NCBI GenBank assembly: GCA_025611195.1
Contig: GCA_025611195.1_4718.1
DNA length: 64,000 nucleotides
From: a phage
Direction: 5' to 3' (one strand)
A program made the translations under genes and the position numbers. Of the stretch, positions 13,240-63,557 are shown one piece after another. Every line of letters starts with the position of its first letter. The stretch's first letter is position 1. The notes under the pieces were generated by a model. It did not search any database. It was not told where the DNA came from and was given only the letters and a program-made list of their open reading frames with translations.

Positions 13240-16200
13240 ATGGTAGATAAAACCCGTGTTGAGGGTGATGATAATTGGGATAACTGGGATGATGACTTCT
13301 CCCTGGATCTCGATTTTAACGAACCCAAAGACGATCGTAAACCGATAACACGCTTTGCGGTAGGAGCGGTTAAAGGTGCTGCTGAGGATCTTACTTCCTA
13401 CGAAAGAATGAAGGAGATCGCCAGAAACGCATTGCCTAAGGGCTATAGCGACGGTATGGATCTTATTGATTCCGCCGTCGGATCCACGAAGGAACTATAC
13501 AATGAAGCCGTTCGTGACGTTCTTCCTAAGGTCCAAAGCTCAAAACGGTTAGCTGCACAACTGACCAAGAAATACCGTGCAAGCATGCCCGATTTCTCGA
13601 AGAAAATTCTTGAGCAATGGGAGCAAGAAGCCAAGGAAGAAGACGAACGTAAACAAGCTGAAGAAACTCTTCGTCAACGCATGGCGAGCGCGGGGGACGA
13701 TGAGATCGCCCGCAAGGTTGCCGAGGCATTAGGCGAATCAGCAAACCAAAGCGCAGATCAGTTCGCTGAACAGCAAGCGAAAGAAAGTATCCGTGACGAT
13801 ATCGCTGACAAACGGTACGCTGTAACCAACAAACAAATGAGTGCGATGCAAGAAGGCGTCGCCAAGATGGTTGGTTTCAACAATGAATTCGCTGCACGCT
13901 ACATGCGTAAAAGCCTGGAACTGAAATATCGTTCCTTAGCGATTCAACGTGCAAGTTTCGACCAGCATAAAAAGTTAGCCGAAGTCTATATCGGTTTATT
14001 ACAAAACATCCAGAAGAATACGGCTTTACCTGATGCGGCTAAAGCAAAAATGTCGGAAGAATTCCGTCGTAGTGCGTACCAACGTTTCTTTGGTAATGCG
14101 TTAGATGCGATGAGTTCTTTCGAGAACCGTTTCTTTGCTGATGTTAAGAAGAACCTTGCCACCAACGCATTAGGCGCTTTAAAAGGCGTCGTGTCTGGCG
14201 CAAACGATGCGTTATACGGTTTAAACGAAGCACGTGACTCGATGTCCATGATGGACGGGATGGGGTCAGAAGGCGATATTAAGGAAATGCAAGGAAAGAT
14301 GTTGGGTCAGTTCATTGGCTCAACTGTCGCACCATGGATGGCTAATAAAGGTAGGATGGCGTTACGCGATTTAGCAAAACGTCACCCCAATGCTAAATTC
14401 GCTAGCGCGTTAAAAGCCGTGGATCAAGGTGGTGAGGCTGCCGCATACACAACGCGTAATCTCGGTAAACTGCTCCAGGAAGATATTCGTAAGAACGAAT
14501 TCAATCTTAGCGATCCGTTTTACAAGCAATTGTTACGCGGTGCGGGGCGTTGGGCGTTCAACATGGACAGCGGACGTAACTTCCGTGTGATGAACGACAC
14601 CGCTGAAACATTGGCGGAACAAACGTCTTTCGACGGTTTAACCTACCGCAGTATCAATGAAGTTATTCCTGGCTTTCTTGCACGCATTCTGAAAAGCAGT
14701 GAGGGTATCCGCACCGGAAACAGCGATCCAGACTACGAGGTCTATGACGGCATCAGCGGGCAATTCGTGTCTCAGCGTACGCGTGAACAAAGCGTCAACG
14801 ACACACTGTTTAACAAACGTACATTTGGTTATTACGCCAGCCGTTTCAACGAGGTTATCTCGGTCATCGATCCCGATAAACAATTATCGGAAAAAGCCAG
14901 AAAGGCGCTGGCTAAGCAGTTGGCACGAGATAGCGACGCGAACATCGCATTCGACCCGGCTCGTTTTACGGATGAAAGCAACTTCGATCGTAGTATCGAT
15001 CGTGACGCTATTAAGGAACTTTCCGCGTACTTTCGTGACCGTTATGGTATTCGTGACGATATCAACGATAAAGGCGAACGTCATCAGGTCATTGGAAACC
15101 GCGGACAATATTACACGGAACGTAACCGAGCTGATCTTCGCTACGGTAATCTGAAATCTTTACAACCGGATATCCAGCGTAACCTTAACCTACTGAAACG
15201 TACTGGTGACGTCCAATATCTGGAACGTATCGGTATTGTGACGAGAAATAGCGACGGAAGCTACTCGGTTAATCACGATCGTTATTTCTCTGAAATTGAT
15301 CAATACATCGACCGACCAGAGTACGCTGACCGTGGCGATGTCAATACGCGATTAACCTCTCAGGAAACAAGAGCGCTGGCGCTGGGTTACCGTGACGCAA
15401 AACCATCAACAGGCGACGTCCAAAATGCAGGTCTGCCGAACATCGAACGTAAGGTTGCTGGAACAGTAACCATTGATGAAAACATCGGCTACGATAAATG
15501 GTGGAACGACACGGGTGTTATCACCACATCGCTTGAAGAACAGAATCGAGCATGGCAAGAACTCTATCTCGAAGCGCTGTCTGAAGCATCCGAACAACGT
15601 GTTGAAATGCTTACGTTACTGAAAGCCATTTCTGAGAAAGACTGGTCTAATAACGTTTCACTGGATGGCGAAGATGTACCTGAAGGTACGGCACCTATTT
15701 CCTTTATCGATCGCGCCAAACAAAAACTCGGTGCGCGTAACCTCTTTAAAGGCGGCCGTAATCTCCTCTGGAAAGGAATTAAAAATACCGCACGATTGGG
15801 TGTTAAAGGCGCACGTTGGGGTGCAGAACGTACATTAGGTAGTTTGGTAAATTCCGGCCGACGCATTATCAACTTCAACCGATTCGTGTTCGGTGCGTTA
15901 TCCAAAGTCGATCAGGTTCCGTTTGACATTTACGTTAAAGGGGAATCCCAACCACGCATACTGGCTGCCAAACTTCGTCAGGGGTTATACTTCGACGAAG
16001 CGACAGGAAAAGCCGTAAAACGAATGAAGGATATCAAAGGCCCACTCGTTGATGCAGATGGAAACATCGTAATCAGCAACGAGGATATCGAGAAAGGGTT
16101 GGTCACTCGCGCTGGTCGTGCCTTTGAGAATTCAGGACTTAAAGCGTGGGCGCATGAAGGTCTTAATGGAATAACGACGGTCTTAAGTCTGCCGCGGATG

Positions 16201-48826: not shown

Positions 48827-48848
48827 GGTTTCTGTTTTCCTTGGTTTA

Positions 48849-49682
48849 TCACGATGCCAGGTCAGCGATATCCCAATGGGTATAACCAACCTCGCGGATG
48901 AGCTCTGCTGTTTCTTCGAACAGTGGGGTAGGGCTAATGACCGGTAACCATTTCCCCTCTCGGGTTATCTTGACTTCGACGGTCTGTAAGTTCGTGTTCC
49001 AACGAACATCATAAACCAGCGCATAGCCAAGAGGATGAACAAGTCCATCTTGGTTAAATGTCTCCAAAAGACCTCGTACGTCTTCTTCGTAGGATGTTTT
49101 CGACAAGACAGCACGTACTCGTCGCAGTCTCTTCGTGATAACCTTTCCCAGCTCGATGCTCTCCCAGCCTGTCATGACGCAAGGATTGTCATCACGACGA
49201 AGAGACCGAGAAATATAAATAGAATCGCTCGCGGTAAGGTGTACCCACCCAAGATCGCAGTATGCGACAGGTCGTGGTGATTCTCCTTCGATAACCGTCG
49301 GTTCATCCAACATCGCCACAACACCGCAGTCTGCGAACTCCGGCGATACTTCATCCAGCATCTTAATACGGCTTTCTTGGCCGGTATGGTCAGGATCAAC
49401 ATGCGCGTAGTAGTAATTAGGCTCTATCGCACGGTATTGCGCAATACGTCTACGGAAGTCAGGATCCTGCATTCCCAGCGGATGGTAATACGCAAGCTGT
49501 TGCTTTATACCATCCTTGATTACCAACAGAAGATCTTCGCGATCTGATGCGGGATCTTCCACCACGATGTATTTAACAATCGCTTTCAGGTTCTTAACGA
49601 TGTTATCCGGAAGTTTCTCGATATCTCGAGCATCGTAGACGCGGTTAACTACAGTGCTTACAAGGTGTTTTGATAGGCTCAT
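48849..49682 (-). CDS. hypothetical protein (277 aa), paralog of 50039..50821
   Basis: C-terminal VHPLGYALVYDVRWNTNLQTVEVKITREGKWLPVISP aligns with VHPLGFAWVSEVRYNPRKKRVEAKVLNERWLPVVQP in the other gene. Confidence 0.55.
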   Translation of the reverse strand: MSLSKHLVSTVVNRVYDARDIEKLPDNIVKNLKAIVKYIVVEDPASDREDLLLVIKDGIKQQLAYYHPLGMQDPDFRRRIAQYRAIEPNYYYAHVDPDHTGQESRIKMLDEVSPEFADCGVVAMLDEPTVIEGESPRPVAYCDLGWVHLTASDSIYISRSLRRDDNPCVMTGWESIELGKVITKRLRRVRAVLSKTSYEEDVRGLLETFNQDGLVHPLGYALVYDVRWNTNLQTVEVKITREGKWLPVISPTPLFEETAELIREVGYTHWDIADLAS

Positions 49683-49724
49683 CGATGATCTCTCTTTGTT
49701 ATTTCTACCGATAACTCGGCATAA

Positions 49725-49742
49725 GGGGACAATGATGTCCCC
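49725..49742 (-). terminator. GGGGAC-N6-GTCCCC hairpin
   Basis: GGGGAC-AATGAT-GTCCCC between stop of 49752 gene and start of 49682 gene; sibling at 47990..48007. Confidence 0.4.
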
Positions 49743-49751
49743 ATGTTCATG

Positions 49752-50042
49752 TTAACTCCCTCTGTGGCATGAAAACAGAGCGTCTAATTGCTCCCGTTGT
49801 TCTTTTAAGTATGCGGGAAGCTGGTCTTCCCGTACCGTTCCGATTTCCAACGTGATGTACCAGCGTTGTTCGGAAGCCTGCCATTGAAAACTGCTCTGTA
49901 ACCTCAGGATGTTGGGATCGTGTACCATGCTTGCGCTGTAACGGTTGAACCAATTCAGGTATTCTGCTTTCCCTTCCTCGTCGGCAACGTAACGCTGCAC
50001 GCTGTTCTTCCCTTTGTTCTCGTATCCTGTTGCACGTATCAT
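49752..50042 (-). CDS. hypothetical protein (about 96 aa)
   Basis: Frame chosen over overlapping Arg-rich frame 49747..50091. Start ATG 50042 overlaps upstream stop (ATGA). Confidence 0.45.
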   Translation of the reverse strand: MIRATGYENKGKNSVQRYVADEEGKAEYLNWFNRYSASMVHDPNILRLQSSFQWQASEQRWYITLEIGTVREDQLPAYLKEQREQLDALFSCHRGS

Positions 50043-50821
50043 GCGAACGTTTCTCCTGTAACGTGTTGTGGGCGTTGTAGCATGGTAGCATCCCATTGTA
50101 CGATCCGGCTCCGGCTTACCCGCATCATGATGGATTCATCGTCAAGCCCTGGTTGCACAACCGGTAACCAACGTTCGTTAAGCACCTTCGCTTCAACCCG
50201 TTTCTTGCGTGGGTTGTAACGCACCTCGCTAACCCAAGCGAATCCAAGCGGATGGACCACCCGTGGATAATACATGCGAAGCAATTGATGCATCCGATCC
50301 AGTACCTCCAGGTCAGCATCGGTCAGGTATGGTTTCACCATGGTAAGCTTTTTGGTGTAATACGTTCCGGTGGTATGATTGATCCAACCAGGAAGCACGT
50401 GATGGAACCCTACCTGTAATGGCGTATCCCCGTTCACCTTCAACCAACCGTATCGCCCTGTCGCACGTCCCTCATCGTAAGCAACTTGTGCAAGCTGATC
50501 GATGAACGCACGATCGGTGATCTCGATGCGTTCCACCCGTTCATCCAACGCACCGCGTACCACGAATCCGCTCGCGCTCATCCGCGCAGGATGCTGGCTG
50601 CGATGCGCGTACCAATTCTTGTTGCCGGTAAGCAGGTAAGGGTACGTGTGAGCACCCCGCCAAACAACCGTTCCGTTCGTCCCATCAACACAGTGTACAT
50701 ACATCCCATCTTGACCGTTGTTGTAGCATGCTACCTTCACGCATTCGTTTTGAACATCGCTCGGTAACGCCAGGTATTCACCTTCGGTAAACATGGTATC
50801 AAAAATGATTTCGTCGTTCAT
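50039..50821 (-). CDS. hypothetical protein (260 aa), paralog of 48849..49682; predicted early gene
   Basis: Paralogous C-terminal block; CTATATTACCT motif about 80 nt upstream. Confidence 0.55.
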   Translation of the reverse strand: MNDEIIFDTMFTEGEYLALPSDVQNECVKVACYNNGQDGMYVHCVDGTNGTVVWRGAHTYPYLLTGNKNWYAHRSQHPARMSASGFVVRGALDERVERIEITDRAFIDQLAQVAYDEGRATGRYGWLKVNGDTPLQVGFHHVLPGWINHTTGTYYTKKLTMVKPYLTDADLEVLDRMHQLLRMYYPRVVHPLGFAWVSEVRYNPRKKRVEAKVLNERWLPVVQPGLDDESIMMRVSRSRIVQWDATMLQRPQHVTGETFA

Positions 50822-50902
50822 CTAAAAAAGATCCTCTGTTTTTCACGTTAATTAAACAACGTATTGATTTCTATTTAACGCAATACGAACATTGTACGTA
50901 TG

Positions 50903-50923
50903 CATCATGAAGGTAATATAGTC
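50903..50923 (-). promoter_or_regulatory. early-promoter-like motif (21-nt GACTATATTACCTTCATGATG)
   Basis: About 80 nt upstream of ATG 50821, at the edge of the AT-rich non-coding region. Confidence 0.5.
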
Positions 50924-51064
50924 GTGAAAGGATTTGCATTAAAGCAAGGGTTTTGTTTTAAGAAGGGATGGATTTAGAAGAGGTGTTTCAAGGAAGGTAA
51001 ACGAGGATAGGTATTTTGATTTAAGTAAGATGTTATCTGTATTTGTTAAAAGTGTATTGTCTAT

Positions 51065-51396
51065 GTTATCTTGTTTATCTTAGGTTATGTCTTATTGTTT
51101 AATCGTTTTATCTTTGTAGGTTAAATTGTTCTAGTTATCTTGTTGTATAAAGTAATTCAATAAGCTTATCTTCAAAATGATAAATAACTTGTGTTTATTG
51201 TACATGCTAATCAAAAAACCATTTGTGATACTCTTCTTCACGTTGTTCATCAGAGTATCTCGTCTATACTCATTGCATTCGTATACGACATAACCGTTAT
51301 ACGCTAACGCTACGCTTATAGCTTGATAACTCTAAGGATAAAAACATAAACTCGCTTCGCTCGTTTAGTTTTTCTTTTTCTTAGAGTTATCTTGTT
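51065..51396. repeat. iteron-like direct repeats (A)GTTATCTTGTT(G) in AT-rich non-coding region
   Basis: Three copies at about 51065, 51134 and 51386; no ORF of 60 aa or more in this region. Confidence 0.4.
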
Positions 51397-51557
51397 GCTC
51401 GTCTCTAAAGGACTTCGCTCCTCCCCCGTCCCCCGAAGGGGCCGAGGTCGTGGAAATTTTACTTTCCAAATACATTTACAACATCTGTAAACTTTTACTC
51501 CAGGTACTTAATCTTATCATTAGAAATTATAAAGAGAAGAATAAACACAAACATAAA

Positions 51558-51589
51558 CCTTCCTCCAACCCAACAGGGAAGGAGGAAGG
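51558..51589 (-). terminator. family-A palindromic hairpin
   Basis: Stem CCTTCCTCC/GGAGGAAGG, loop AACCCAACAGGGAA; T-rich tract follows on minus strand. Confidence 0.5.
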
Positions 51590-51602
51590 GGATTAATTAA
51601 AA

Positions 51603-52496
51603 TTATTCGGAAACGTTGTAACCGAATACCGCTTTACCGTAGGTGTGAGTACCGTCAGCTAATGACAGCACCAACACGTGGTTGTACGTAGCGTTAACGC
51701 CTTTATCGGTGGAATCGGTGGTAGCACCGTTATAGACGAAAGTAGCCGTTTGCAGATTGGCTTTCAGCTCGGTGATGATCTCGTCGCCCACACCCGTCTG
51801 CTCTTTGATCAGCGTGGTCAGGTTACCTGCCAGGCTTTCATCGATCTTGGTTTCGTTACTGGTAATCGCCTGTAAACCTGCGGTGTAGGTACTGAAGTCT
51901 AACGGATAGGTTAACAGACGCGCTGAGGTCTTGGTGCCATCGCCTTCATCAACGTAGGTTAAGTTACCCAGGTTGGTAACCTTGATGATGTTGGACAGAT
52001 CCAGCGTGGTGTTATAAACCTTAACTTGAACAGAACCGTACCAAGCCAGCGAATCTTCTTTGGCTTTCAGGGTGATCGTCTGGATACCATGATCGTCGAA
52101 GGTAACCGGCGTAGCTAACGTATCGGCTTTGATGTCTTTCGCTTTATCCAGGAACTTCTCACCGGAAGGTGTGATCATACCGTAGCGTTGAGCTACAAGG
52201 TCAACCACATCACCGATGGTGGTGTTTTTATTAACGTTAACGCGTACGGCGATCTTCTGGAACCACTTAGCCAGATCCAGACGATGATAGGTAACATCGC
52301 GGTCATTGAAGTAAGGAGTACCTTCACCAGGGCTAAGCGTTAAAGTTGCATCTGGAGCAGAATCGCTTTTGGATTTAAGAACGTATTTAAGGTCGGTGGG
52401 TTTGAAGTTGGCACCCGTATCGGCGTTGAGTGTGTTAATCTCATCAACGATAAGTTGCCAAGGTGTTTTTAAAGTAAGTGATACTTGAGCTGTCAT
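51603..52496 (-). CDS. hypothetical structural-type protein (297 aa)
   Basis: N-terminal region homologous to 52643..53185 (YFNDRDVTYHRLDLAKWF vs FYYDRLALSEVF; TIGDVVDLVAQRYGMITPSGE vs SIKASELVSKLVTKFGLASLTGE). Confidence 0.55.
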   Translation of the reverse strand: MTAQVSLTLKTPWQLIVDEINTLNADTGANFKPTDLKYVLKSKSDSAPDATLTLSPGEGTPYFNDRDVTYHRLDLAKWFQKIAVRVNVNKNTTIGDVVDLVAQRYGMITPSGEKFLDKAKDIKADTLATPVTFDDHGIQTITLKAKEDSLAWYGSVQVKVYNTTLDLSNIIKVTNLGNLTYVDEGDGTKTSARLLTYPLDFSTYTAGLQAITSNETKIDESLAGNLTTLIKEQTGVGDEIITELKANLQTATFVYNGATTDSTDKGVNATYNHVLVLSLADGTHTYGKAVFGYNVSE

Positions 52497-54241: not shown

Positions 54242-56290
54242 TTAAATACCCTTGGTTCCTTTCACGTGATGTGCAATTTCTTCAACCATTGCACGCAGGG
54301 CACGAAGTTGTTGGTCGTGTTCATACCAACCGCCTAACAGAACCCCGCTATACACCATGGTGTCAAGACTTAACAGCCCTTTATCTGATACGTTGATCAT
54401 TTCCGGGAACTGTTCTTGAACACGCTGTGCGATAACACCGATCTTCTCGACATCAGGATCGTAGTTGTGACGGAAACGAGCGAGTCCGCTATGTGCCATC
54501 TCACGTAAACGATCACTGAAAGATTCCGGATGGTCTTTCAGATAACGGATGTCATGTTTACTGCGTTCATCAGAACGGATGTATGCGTTAGGAACATCGA
54601 TGTTGCTGTTGAAGTACAGCGCACTACCGCCACCGGCAGAGTTCCCCCAATAGAAGCTGGTTAAGATGCTACCCCCGTTACCTGTAACGTGCACCGTGCT
54701 GCCTACACGGGTTCCCCCACTACCATCAACGAAGACAAGCTTGTTCCCGCTGTAAGAACCCCAGAACAAACGGCTGTCGATGATGTTTGTTGCAGCGAGG
54801 CGAGCGTTACGTGGTGTAGAATACACGGTGTTAACATCTTGCTGTGCTTGCGCATCGGAAGCGATACCGTAGTTCTGAACATTCCCTAAGCCTACCTGGG
54901 CTTTGTTAACGGCGTGAGGGTTATCCCGACGGTTAGCGTGAGCATTAACCAGATCGCCCGCCAGTTTTTGAATAGCCCAGTTGGTAGATTGTGGCGTCAT
55001 ATAGCGGTTAGTTGCAGAACCACCTTGCGCTTCAGCTTGGTTAGCAGTTGGATAGTTCTCAACGCTTCCCAACCCTACCTGTGCTTTAGACACTTGGTGC
55101 GGGTTGTTCTTGTCGGCGATGTGCGCATTAAGCGGAACTAACGCGAAGGTCTCAATGGACGCTTTGGTGGTGTTCGGTGCCATTAATCGGTTAGCTGCAA
55201 CACCCGCACGCGCTTCTTCTTCAGAAGCCATCGGATAGTCTTGCACATTCCCTAACCCAACCTGCGCCTTGGTTACTCTGTGTGGGTTGTTGTAATCGGC
55301 TTTATGCGCATTAAGTGGAATCAATGCGAACTGTTCAATCGCTGCAACGGTACGTAGCGGTGTCATGAAACGGTTGTTCGCTGTTCCGGCTTTCGCCTCA
55401 TCATCCGAAGCGGTCGGGAAGTTATCAACGTTCCCAAGGTTAACCTGTGCTTTGGTGACGCTATGTGGGTTATCTCGACGGTTAGCATGCGCGTCGACTA
55501 GATCGCCCGCCAGTTTAGCAATCGCCCATCCAACCGTCTGTGCTGTCATGTATCGGTCAGGTGCGGTACCGGCTTCTGCCTCCGCCTTGTTTGCGGTAGG
55601 ATAGTTCTGTACGTTACCTAGTCCGACTTGGGCTTTTGTTACTTCATGCGGGTTATCGGTACGGTTAGCGTGCGCGTAATGCAGATCGGTCAGATCTTTA
55701 TCCGCTGCTTGCATGTCTTTGCGTAACTGATCGATTGCCGCCCAGAGACGGTTATCGGACGCAGCATCACCGATGAGTATTGCGGCTTTTAGCGAATAGA
55801 TCGCTAAGCAAAGATGTTCGGTACCGTAGATAGCACTAACGTGGTGGATGTGTGGTTCAGGCGGATAAAGTTCCGGTTTGTTCTTGATGTCGTCCCAGTT
55901 GATCGGACGATCGTCAAGTTTGAGTTCTTCGATAGCCTGATACAACGCATCAATAAGACTTACGTAAACACCACCGATGATACGATAGTCGTTAACTAAT
56001 GTACCCTCGATGTCATCGTTGATGATGGCGATGGCCGCACAGATTTCTTTACCAGCGTAAAGCGTAGCGTCCTGATACAAGAAAATGGGTTTGTAATCCA
56101 CGCCGCGTACCAGTGTCTTACCGGTAAGCTTTTCGGTGATAACCAGACTTTCGGTGAAGAACGGTCCGCCATCGAGGGCGTAACATTTATTCTCGGTTCG
56201 TGGAACGGTGTGCTCTTCACCAACGATGTGGTTGCTATCGAGCGTGCCGGTCCAGTCCTCGGGGTACTTCAGGGTAATTGGTGTTGACAT
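54242..56290 (-). CDS. tail fibre protein with NPHxVTKAQVGLGNV repeats and C-terminal S74-like chaperone domain
   Basis: Five tandem repeats of about 57 aa (phage tail-fibre repeat). C-terminal RSDERSKHDIRYL resembles the S74 intramolecular chaperone motif. Confidence 0.75.
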   Translation of the reverse strand: MSTPITLKYPEDWTGTLDSNHIVGEEHTVPRTENKCYALDGGPFFTESLVITEKLTGKTLVRGVDYKPIFLYQDATLYAGKEICAAIAIINDDIEGTLVNDYRIIGGVYVSLIDALYQAIEELKLDDRPINWDDIKNKPELYPPEPHIHHVSAIYGTEHLCLAIYSLKAAILIGDAASDNRLWAAIDQLRKDMQAADKDLTDLHYAHANRTDNPHEVTKAQVGLGNVQNYPTANKAEAEAGTAPDRYMTAQTVGWAIAKLAGDLVDAHANRRDNPHSVTKAQVNLGNVDNFPTASDDEAKAGTANNRFMTPLRTVAAIEQFALIPLNAHKADYNNPHRVTKAQVGLGNVQDYPMASEEEARAGVAANRLMAPNTTKASIETFALVPLNAHIADKNNPHQVSKAQVGLGSVENYPTANQAEAQGGSATNRYMTPQSTNWAIQKLAGDLVNAHANRRDNPHAVNKAQVGLGNVQNYGIASDAQAQQDVNTVYSTPRNARLAATNIIDSRLFWGSYSGNKLVFVDGSGGTRVGSTVHVTGNGGSILTSFYWGNSAGGGSALYFNSNIDVPNAYIRSDERSKHDIRYLKDHPESFSDRLREMAHSGLARFRHNYDPDVEKIGVIAQRVQEQFPEMINVSDKGLLSLDTMVYSGVLLGGWYEHDQQLRALRAMVEEIAHHVKGTKGI
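54850..55660 (-). repeat. intragenic tandem repeats encoding NPHxVTKAQVGLGNV modules
   Basis: Five units of about 170 nt; recurring DNA blocks such as TTCCCTAACCCAACCTG.GCTTTGGT.AC. Confidence 0.7.
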
Positions 56291-63515: not shown

Positions 63516-63525
63516 ACAAACATAA

Positions 63526-63557
63526 CCCTCCTCCAACCCATCAGGGAAGGAGGAGGG
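63526..63557. terminator. family-A palindromic hairpin (reverse orientation)
   Basis: Stem CCCTCCTCC/GGAGGAGGG, loop AACCCATCAGGGAA. Confidence 0.5.

Follow-up and report, generated by a model that had tools for sequence, protein, structure and literature searches.

A near-invariant hairpin block, tentatively read as a structured RNA gene, in the largest non-coding gap of a Goslar-like nucleus-forming phage

Several described systems resemble parts of the locus reported here, the 781-base gap at positions 50822-51602 of a 64,000-nucleotide phage contig (GCA_025611195.1_4718.1; this whole stretch is called the window below), which separates homologues of the genes gp021 and gp022 of Escherichia phage vB_EcoM_Goslar and contains a strongly conserved, hairpin-rich segment that we call block B. 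Among structured RNAs, block B is like phi29 pRNA and 6S RNA in its size class, its multiple hairpins, its invariant loops with drifting stems and its UUCG-capped helix, and also in being single-copy and conserved well above the neighbouring genes. Unlike these RNAs, it has no Rfam match, no recognised promoter and no recognised partner protein, its transcription is presumed, and it is confined to one genus-level clade. Among replication origins, lambda ori, P1 oriR, T4 oriE and the theta plasmids share with the gap a unique AT minimum, same-orientation repeats and adjacent inverted repeats, and the gap, like iteron origins, is non-coding and located next to an early transcription unit. Iteron origins carry at least three same-orientation direct repeats, which are typically 17-22 bp long and regularly spaced, whereas the repeats of the gap are short (7-11 nt), irregular and variable in number, with no recognisable initiator, DnaA boxes or skew signal. 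Plasmid ssi/ssoA and the complementary-strand origin of phage G4, which serve here as a lead only, are orientation-specific, 150-300-nt hairpin-rich elements with G·T-tolerant stems and GCGAAGC-type mini-hairpins; however, they belong to single-stranded or rolling-circle replicons, whereas the gap lies in a 237-kb double-stranded DNA (dsDNA) phage. The two edge signals of the gap are like the early promoters and intrinsic terminators of Chimalliviridae, and these cover only ~45 of the 781 bases. No replication origin or functional non-coding RNA was defined for Chimalliviridae in the reviews searched, and nothing comparable to the gap element was described for Goslar in the literature searched.

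The window belongs to a relative of Goslar, a nucleus-forming jumbo phage of the Chimalliviridae and the Escherichia coli model for such phages. By sequence alignment, Goslar 1-28220 aligned to window 34982-64000 with 91-93% identity, and the counterpart of the gap was Goslar 14972-15825, which is unannotated in the Goslar record; within it, window 51213-51505 corresponds to Goslar 15436-15727. In the 237-kb Goslar genome assembled from the record, this gap, with 854 bp, was the longest stretch without a long open reading frame (ORF). It also held the only 300-bp window with a GC content below 0.30 and the only site with at least three TTATCTT per 400 bp. It is thus the outstanding non-coding feature of this model phage, and it is its most strongly constrained non-coding DNA. 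Goslar was the only DNA-level match among other GenBank phages, the next gp022 relatives having ~28% protein identity. No similarity of the region to E. coli genomes, plasmids or GTDB genomes was detected, indicating that it is not derived from a host or a plasmid. The equivalent gap was gathered from 23 related contigs (IMG/VR, metagenome and gp022-homologue carriers), among them assemblies with the labels Salmonella, Shigella and E. coli. The structure alignment comprised 21 sequences, and block B was compared with the flanking genes in 20 contigs. The gap consists of five parts (gp022 terminator, short spacer, block B, AT-rich spacer, and early promoter with leader), which are listed here from left to right together with the flanking genes, both encoded on the minus strand:

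50039-50821, minus strand: gp021 homologue, the gene left of the gap, with its ATG at 50821
50822-50910, minus strand: probable 5' untranslated leader (~85-90 nt) of the early operon of the gp021 homologue, from the predicted start site to the ATG at 50821
50911-50921, minus strand: early (virion RNA polymerase) promoter motif CTATATTACCT, judged by its copies, position and conservation
50922-51212, no strand assigned: AT-rich, strand-asymmetric spacer, defined by composition, repeats and variable length
51213-51497, minus strand: block B, an ultra-conserved structured core and candidate non-coding RNA, defined by conservation, folding and covariation
51498-51557, minus strand: spacer of moderate conservation that separates block B from the terminator, defined by comparison of clades
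51558-51589, minus strand: intrinsic-terminator-like hairpin of the gp022 homologue, defined by its inverted repeat, covariation and dispersed copies
51603-52496, minus strand: gp022 homologue, a virion structural protein (DUF7941), the gene right of the gap

The edges of the gap are ordinary, namely a terminator on one side and an early promoter with its leader on the other, but the interior is not, and ~640 bp between the two edge signals could be assigned to neither neighbouring gene. Comparison of the gap among relatives separated two contrasting zones, a spacer of variable length and the near-frozen block B. A preliminary description, made from the sequence letters, had reported an AT-rich non-coding region with iterons, bounded by a promoter and a terminator, and had proposed a replication origin, a promoter cluster or a non-coding RNA locus. 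The absence of any ORF of at least 60 aa was confirmed, the largest being 48 aa, and the AT-rich surroundings were also found (GC 24-31% between 50900 and 51300). The statement on the boundaries was misleading: both signals serve the neighbouring minus-strand genes, and therefore there is no unit bounded by a promoter and a terminator. The origin and the non-coding RNA survive as proposals on different sub-regions, the former fitting the AT-rich, iteron-like spacer at 50922-51212 and the latter block B at 51213-51497. The promoter cluster found no support, as a single early-promoter motif is present and sigma-70-like sites were no commoner than in shuffled sequences.

Our best reading of block B, to which we give a probability of about 40%, is a structured non-coding RNA (ncRNA) gene on the minus strand. 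It is ranked ahead of a replication origin because of transcript-like boundaries, strand-biased and compensatory substitutions, a UUCG loop and invariant loops with drifting stems; the two readings are not mutually exclusive. Block B was 95-100% identical in 19 of the 20 contigs and 92.6% identical in the most divergent one (L013), while in the same contigs the DNA identity was 76-93% for gp022 and 73-92% for gp021. For L023, the value for block B was 98.6% versus 79.7% and 72.7% for the flanking genes, and for L029 it was 98.2% versus 78.5%. Similarly, the 100-nt sliding identity against Goslar reached 0.98-1.00 in block B versus ~0.9 in the surroundings. This conservation, far above that of the surrounding genes, indicates that selection clearly acts on the region. 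Block B was found in every relative with DNA at this place and a gp022 protein at least 77% identical. It was absent from the same gap in L018 (gp022 protein 51% identical), where the terminator lies directly beside the early-promoter motif. Searching with nhmmer identified no paralogue in Goslar, the window or L018, and block B is thus single-copy.

Conservation begins past the terminator and the adjoining spacer and ends exactly at the last hairpin (H8, below) plus CACAAAUGG-U5-9. The minus-strand limit was abrupt, at ...CACAAATGG followed by 5-9 T; all 21 sequences were identical through CACAAATG, then carried these 5-9 T and were unalignable beyond:

51213-51221, minus strand: T-run at the conservation limit, minus strand ...CACAAAUGG-UUUUUU, with the U-run at 51213-51218

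This T-run may be the 3' end of a minus-strand RNA. The variation within block B consisted of two alleles differing by ~5%, plus recombinants, and the gaps of L023 and L029 were mosaics of clade-1 and clade-2 segments. Such mosaic genomes, together with hairpin flips that show active DNA-level recombination at inverted repeats, would suit another explanation, in which block B owes its uniformity to recombination or gene conversion, as a selfish or hitch-hiking segment that recently swept through the Goslar-like phages. We consider this very unlikely. The block was kept in 23 of 23 contigs from varied hosts and samples, as two ~5%-different alleles with both flanks diverged, and the observed changes are compatible with the structure; moreover, it has no terminal inverted repeats and no associated nuclease or transposase, and occurs once per genome.

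As RNA, the minus strand of block B folded at −87.7 kcal/mol (z −5.45), its centroid lying near the minimum-energy fold, and the plus strand at −71.6 kcal/mol (z −4.82), both well beyond shuffled sequence. The consensus fold of the 21 sequences reached −103.6 kcal/mol on the minus strand versus −82.2 kcal/mol on the plus strand, the minus strand being better by 21 kcal/mol. The predicted helices of the consensus fold are as follows:

51492-51474, minus strand: hairpin H2
51468-51451, minus strand: hairpin H3
51447-51424, minus strand: hairpin H4, GC-rich, with a C(UUCG)G loop
51423-51408, minus strand: hairpin H4b
51390-51326, minus strand: hairpin H5, 65 nt long and wholly invariant
51322-51309, minus strand: hairpin H6a
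51306-51291, minus strand: hairpin H6b
51289-51262, minus strand: hairpin H7, with a variable loop
51259-51227, minus strand: hairpin H8, with an invariant 17-nt loop
51504-51501 with 51394-51391, minus strand: possible 4-bp closing helix

Two pieces of this structure had been noticed earlier, although not as a single unit: a 9-bp inverted repeat, which proved to be the core of a hairpin with 20-nt arms (51325-51344 / 51372-51391), and a GC-rich island, which was located at 51419-51448. The hyperstable C(UUCG)G loop was present on the minus strand in 20 of the 21 sequences, and the H4 loop was flipped in L013. Variation was concentrated in the H7 loop, and the other loops and linkers varied only at one H2-loop and one H6b-loop position. 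A long-range pairing in the H6-H7 region, considered on a 12-sequence alignment, was rejected after addition of clade 2, which gave 4 compatible and 3 disruptive changes. Since the long-range pairing lost support, a local H7 hairpin with a co-varying 2-bp stem in its loop was preferred.

Compensatory changes were identified in five pairs, located in the terminator, in H4, in the H7 mini-stem (two pairs) and in the closing helix. The H4 pair changed from C-G through U·G to U-A, the 2-bp stem in the H7 loop occurred as the combinations A-U/U-A, G-C/C-G, A-U/C-G and G·U/C-G, and the pair in the closing helix changed from C-G to G·U. The covariation score was 0.064 versus 0.044 in shuffled alignments, none of 500 of which reached the observed value, and controls with partners shifted by 1-3 columns gave at most 0.025. 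Double changes occupied 29 alignment cells versus 10.7 in the shuffles, and 99.5% of cells were paired. Among the hairpins that can form on either strand, one-sided changes arose independently seven times; each yields G·U when read on the minus strand but A·C on the plus strand, with no case of the reverse (binomial probability ~0.008 if the strands were equivalent). This substitution pattern resembles that of a single-stranded molecule that functions with the minus-strand sequence. A search of 2.5 kb against Rfam 15 (4227 families) gave no match at E ≤1, and at E ≤10 only sub-threshold chance matches, the best being terminator-like (19.6 bits versus a threshold of 55). ARAGORN identified no tRNA or tmRNA.

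Based on these features, we propose an order of events along the minus strand. The gp022 terminator hairpin would end a late virion-protein transcript and be followed by the short spacer. Block B would then give an RNA of ~290-340 nt with about nine hairpins, including the C(UUCG)G-capped GC helix and the 65-nt hairpin, and this RNA would end at the U-run 51213-51218. Beyond the putative RNA gene would follow the spacer of variable length, AT-rich and G-poor on the minus strand, with its AAGATAA repeats, and then the early virion-RNA-polymerase promoter and the leader, which would drive the fast-evolving gp021 operon. We infer the transcription of block B, its ends and its action as an RNA from the pattern of its sequence. 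The invariant loops and linkers suggest that block B works as a scaffold for protein binding or base pairing. Its role is more probably accessory or regulatory than core, because block B is confined to the Goslar clade and lies beside an accessory early operon. If it is an RNA, it represents a new family, and the invariant loops should lead to its protein or RNA partner.

A number of observations weigh against an RNA gene. On the side of transcription, the literature search found no transcriptome of Goslar or its relatives, upstream of block B, the minus strand shows no promoter that could be recognised, and the gp022 terminator should stop incoming transcription before block B. The U-run lies 8 nt from H8 and is not a canonical terminator, and the terminator scan found none. 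On the side of structure, no Rfam relative of block B exists among the families searched, and the covariation support is shallow: 9 of the 14 helices have no varying pair, and most helices are therefore uninformative on structure. Independent events are few, because the sequences amount to about two alleles and their recombinants, and a double change of H7 in L031 gives G·G. Moreover, the hairpins flipped in single relatives (L013 and L023) reflect a DNA-level process. GCGAAG, which with a following C forms a DNA mini-hairpin of great stability, is present in two copies on the minus strand within the 285 nt. As G·T pairs are tolerated in DNA hairpins, being the least harmful mismatch in those of single strands, the strand bias cannot separate an RNA from minus-strand single-stranded DNA (ssDNA).

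We then considered whether block B encodes a micro-protein. Two short ORFs, one of 36 aa on the minus strand (51475-51365, MYLESKISTTSAPSGDGGGAKSFRDEQQDNSKKKKN) and one of 32 aa on the plus strand, were intact in all 21 sequences, as is expected from a nearly invariant DNA. With respect to the conserved small gene raised in the preliminary description, an intact ORF was thus found, but no coding signature. Neither ORF is preceded by a Shine-Dalgarno sequence, the ATG of the 36-aa ORF lies within the 3' arm of H2, and its peptide is of low complexity. The ORFs contain few substitutions, most of them non-synonymous (S to P, Q to H, APS to SPE); stem covariation and the loop flip account for these changes better than coding does. 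Furthermore, the ORFs cover about one third of block B, and the third-codon positions are as invariant as the rest. Since all codon-like positions are equally invariant, coding constraint cannot explain the conservation, and we regard a micro-protein as highly improbable, the least probable of the explanations weighed here.

The neighbouring spacer at 50922-51212 showed quite different properties. Its GC content was 0.28, with 8% C versus 21% G on the plus strand, making it G/T-rich and C-poor; its left half is GGA-rich, and its right half contains iteron-like repeats:

51033, 51066, 51075, 51108, 51135 and 51166, plus strand: TTATCT(T) repeats in the right half of the spacer

Six copies of TTATCTT lie in a single orientation within 51066-51387, versus 11 in the other 63 kb, a 45-fold enrichment. 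Altogether there are 6-7 same-orientation copies with a core of 7-11 nt, belonging to a 20-nt family with 75-85% identity, at spacings of 33, 9, 33, 27, 31 and 221 bp. The three copies of GTTATCTTGTT reported earlier were found on the plus strand at 51065, 51134 and 51386 and nowhere else in the window; with up to one mismatch there were 7 matches versus 1.48 expected, and none of 100 shuffles reached 7. The third of these 'iterons' (51386) sits inside the conserved block B, where one of its bases varies among T, C and A in the relatives. The spacer of the relatives measured 262-438 bp, with indels of 4-80 bp, and only 116 bp in L013; positions 51110-51212 were hypervariable, with large indels. 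Most relatives carried 4-6 TTATCT copies, L010 carried 2 and L013 none, giving a range of 0-6. The composition of the spacer was kept (~30% GC; plus strand 6-12% C versus 19-26% G), and clade 2 retained the repeats as AAGATAA(C/A) on the minus strand. As RNA, the spacer was unstructured on either strand (z −0.3 and +1.3). With a GC content of 0.24-0.31, the lowest in the Goslar genome, it has the composition of an AT-rich unwinding element.

These properties raise a replication origin, in which the AT-rich spacer would be the unwinding element, the TTATCTT repeats would be iterons, block B would provide a minus-strand hairpin signal for priming or helicase loading, and the neighbouring early promoter may activate the origin by transcription. 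We hold this reading as possible though doubtful, second to the RNA gene. The gap is exceptional in Goslar in its length, its AT content and its TTATCTT cluster, and the repeats keep one orientation, are strongly enriched and persist in both clades despite rearrangement. The inverted repeats of block B fold well as DNA (z −4.9 and −4.5), with GCGAAG twice on one strand, an early promoter adjoins, and the recent chimallivirus reviews searched mention no replication origin, so that this place is vacant. However, the repeat core is short and irregularly spaced (9-33 bp within the spacer), with 2-6 copies in relatives other than L013, whose 116-bp spacer has none. Scanning for DnaA-box-like sites gave 55 matches in the window and 0 in the gap region, the spacer showed no A-tract phasing, and the cumulative GC skew of Goslar, which tracks transcription direction, had its minimum at 215 kb and no extremum at the gap. 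No initiator is evident: the gp021 homologue was rejected as a candidate, as it has no known domain, its relatives are only 41-95% identical, and its AlphaFold model (pLDDT 56) was too poor for a fold search. In addition, the one promoter recognised points away from the AT-rich DNA, and L018, the relative at 51% identity, lacks the element in its equivalent gap. An origin alone would also not account for invariant loops and linkers in block B beside stems with G·U-type drift. If the gap is an origin, it offers a handle on how replication begins within the phage nucleus and a component with which these phages could be engineered.

A combination of the two readings is also conceivable, in which block B and the iteron spacer would form a replicator or maintenance module whose minus-strand RNA or ssDNA primes or licenses replication at the AT-rich site. 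We judge this combination to be quite unlikely. Among the known Goslar-like genomes, 59 of 60 were found in an unusual persistent carrier state (10.1101/2024.12.31.630880). If true, such a module would give the nucleus-forming phages their first defined origin and might be linked to that state.

At the left edge of the gap, the early-promoter-like motif noted previously was recovered as CTATATTACCT at 50911-50921 on the minus strand. The window contains four exact copies versus 0.6 expected; every one of them is intergenic, has minus-strand orientation and lies ~80-130 nt upstream of the start of a minus-strand ORF. The motif was kept as CTA(T/C)ATTAC in every relative with DNA there, clade 2 included. 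Early promoters of jumbo phages are described as phage-specific, highly conserved AT-rich motifs of ~10 nt, repeated upstream of early operons and centred near −10 (PMC7598289), and CTATATTACCT fits this published description for the chimalliviruses (PMC7598289). It is thus the predicted early virion-RNA-polymerase promoter of the gp021 homologue. As it lies on the minus strand upstream of a minus-strand ORF, this promoter would fire leftwards, out of the gap and into gp021. Promoters of this class act independently of new protein synthesis and start transcripts ~10 nt past the motif centre. Transcription would start just downstream of the motif, because such motifs are centred near −10 (PMC7598289), and 50822-50910 is probably the 5' leader of the gp021 early operon. 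Within this leader, the stretch TTCACGTTAATTAAACAACGTATTGATTTC was invariant in nearly all relatives. Directly downstream of the promoter motif (equivalent to window ~50902), four relatives (L004, L014, L016 and L012) carried an insertion of 22-60 nt. One example, GCATCATGAAGGTAACGCTTACGCGTCGCGTTCATGATGC, is a palindromic hairpin in which some of the promoter-proximal sequence is duplicated, and the insertion resembles a small hairpin element of a mobile or duplicative kind.

Homologues of gp021 were 41-95% identical among the Goslar-like phages, which suggests a fast-evolving early-gene family. We also identified an extra gene for a 277-aa product (ORF 48849-49682, minus strand; window 48843-49788) without a counterpart at the Goslar position, where the Goslar alignment is interrupted between window 48842 and 49789. 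Its product is a distant paralogue of the gp021 homologue (~21% identity, with a common C-terminal motif HPLG...W.P.). Neither the gp021 homologue nor this paralogue gave a Pfam or PHROG match.

At the right edge, the hairpin reported at 51558-51589 was verified and is one copy of a dispersed family. Its minus-strand sequence is CCTTCCTCCTTCCC-TGTT-GGGTTGGAGGAAGG followed by TTTATGTTTGTGTTTATT; the hairpin has 12 bp and a 2x2 internal loop and lies 13 nt past the stop codon of gp022. This position and the T-rich tail on the minus strand mark it as the probable gp022 terminator. The tail UUUAUGUUUGUGUUU is U-rich but interrupted, owing to which a strict terminator scan gave no call. Eight sequences show a compensatory change from U-A to C-G, and the intermediates are G·U when read on the minus strand. 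Near-identical hairpins (CCTTCCTCC..GGAGGAAGG) form a dispersed family behind many genes:

Window 51558-51589, 63516-63554 and 35008-34978: near-identical copies of the terminator hairpin
Goslar 61006, 237249, 27744, 71988, 48110, 93452 and others: further copies, intergenic

In L023, the terminator hairpin after gp022 has a flipped orientation. Several Logan short-read contigs stop 34-47 nt past the gp022 stop codon, probably because the terminator repeat breaks assemblies.

Between this terminator and block B, the spacer at 51498-51557 differed between the two sequence clades by many substitutions and indels, with conserved islands remaining. Any promoter of its own for a block B RNA must lie here. 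On the minus strand, TTTATG follows directly after the terminator, and ATAAGATTA(A/G)GTA is conserved. TATG is the core of phiKZ late promoters (PMC7598289), and it was found in 17 of the 21 sequences, the other four having TATAC. The motifs of this spacer were rejected as a shared promoter, as none recurs elsewhere in Goslar.

A palindrome, GTAAA-NN-TTTAC, lies at the boundary between this spacer and block B and recurs elsewhere:

51484-51498, plus strand: motif TCTGTAAACTTTTAC, which contains the palindrome and overlaps the 5' arm of H2
Window 51487 and 52535; Goslar 15706, 81200, 173087, 176758 and 188961: GTAAA-NN-TTTAC sites identified by motif search

Goslar contains five such sites versus 0.37 expected (~13-fold), all of them confined to non-coding gaps. 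Upstream of the chmA/gp245 genes the match is exact over 16 nt, and other copies lie after gp068, beside the DNA polymerase gene gp244 and between gp022 and gp023 (window 52535). The palindrome may be a binding site for a regulator or a promoter element, and since its flanks in block B are oriented on the plus strand, a short plus-strand transcript may arise there. In addition, the loop and 3' arm of H8 (51227-51259; GATGAACAACGTGAAGAAGAGTATC) resemble the ribosome-binding region and start of gp021 (AACGTGAAAAACAGAGGATC...GATGAACGACG, 50805-50850), the two repeats, D4 and D5, being 86-91% identical. This resemblance makes the gp021 Shine-Dalgarno region and the 5' arm of H8 close to complementary. 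The likeness could be due to chance, a relic duplication or regulatory pairing.

Both observations bear on a further explanation, that the interior of the gap is cis-regulatory DNA or RNA for its neighbours, either an extended terminator or insulator that separates a late structural operon from an early one, a set of sites for a phage regulator that times the gp021 promoter, or a long structured leader made by late read-through of the non-virion polymerase. Its position exactly between a late-gene terminator and an early promoter would suit such a role, as would the palindrome, which recurs in intergenic regions only, and the resemblance of H8 to the gp021 translation-initiation region. Nevertheless, the other three early promoters in the window use gaps of ~130-150 bp without anything comparable, 285 nt of near-total invariance far exceeds the known needs of operators and terminators, and in L018 the terminator and the early promoter stand side by side without block B or the spacer. 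We therefore consider the cis-regulatory explanation unlikely, and the RNA gene is preferred for block B.

Some minor features were identified around the gap. In 6 of 13 long Goslar-like assemblies (at least 180 kb; L005, L014, L020, L021, L023 and L025), a contig end lay ~3-15 kb from the gap, versus ~1.6 expected at random. These ends were scattered over Goslar 0-24 kb with no single site, and the excess might be due to repeats in the vicinity or to a region where packaging starts. The gp025 homologue, a virion protein with a Peptidase_S74 domain, contains diverged internal tandem-like repeats (window 54853-55656, 64-72% identity). The second-largest non-coding gap of Goslar (82470-83288, 819 bp) lies after the NUMOD1/HNH endonuclease gene gp069, which itself follows the DNA polymerase fragment gp068, and this gap is probably intron-related.

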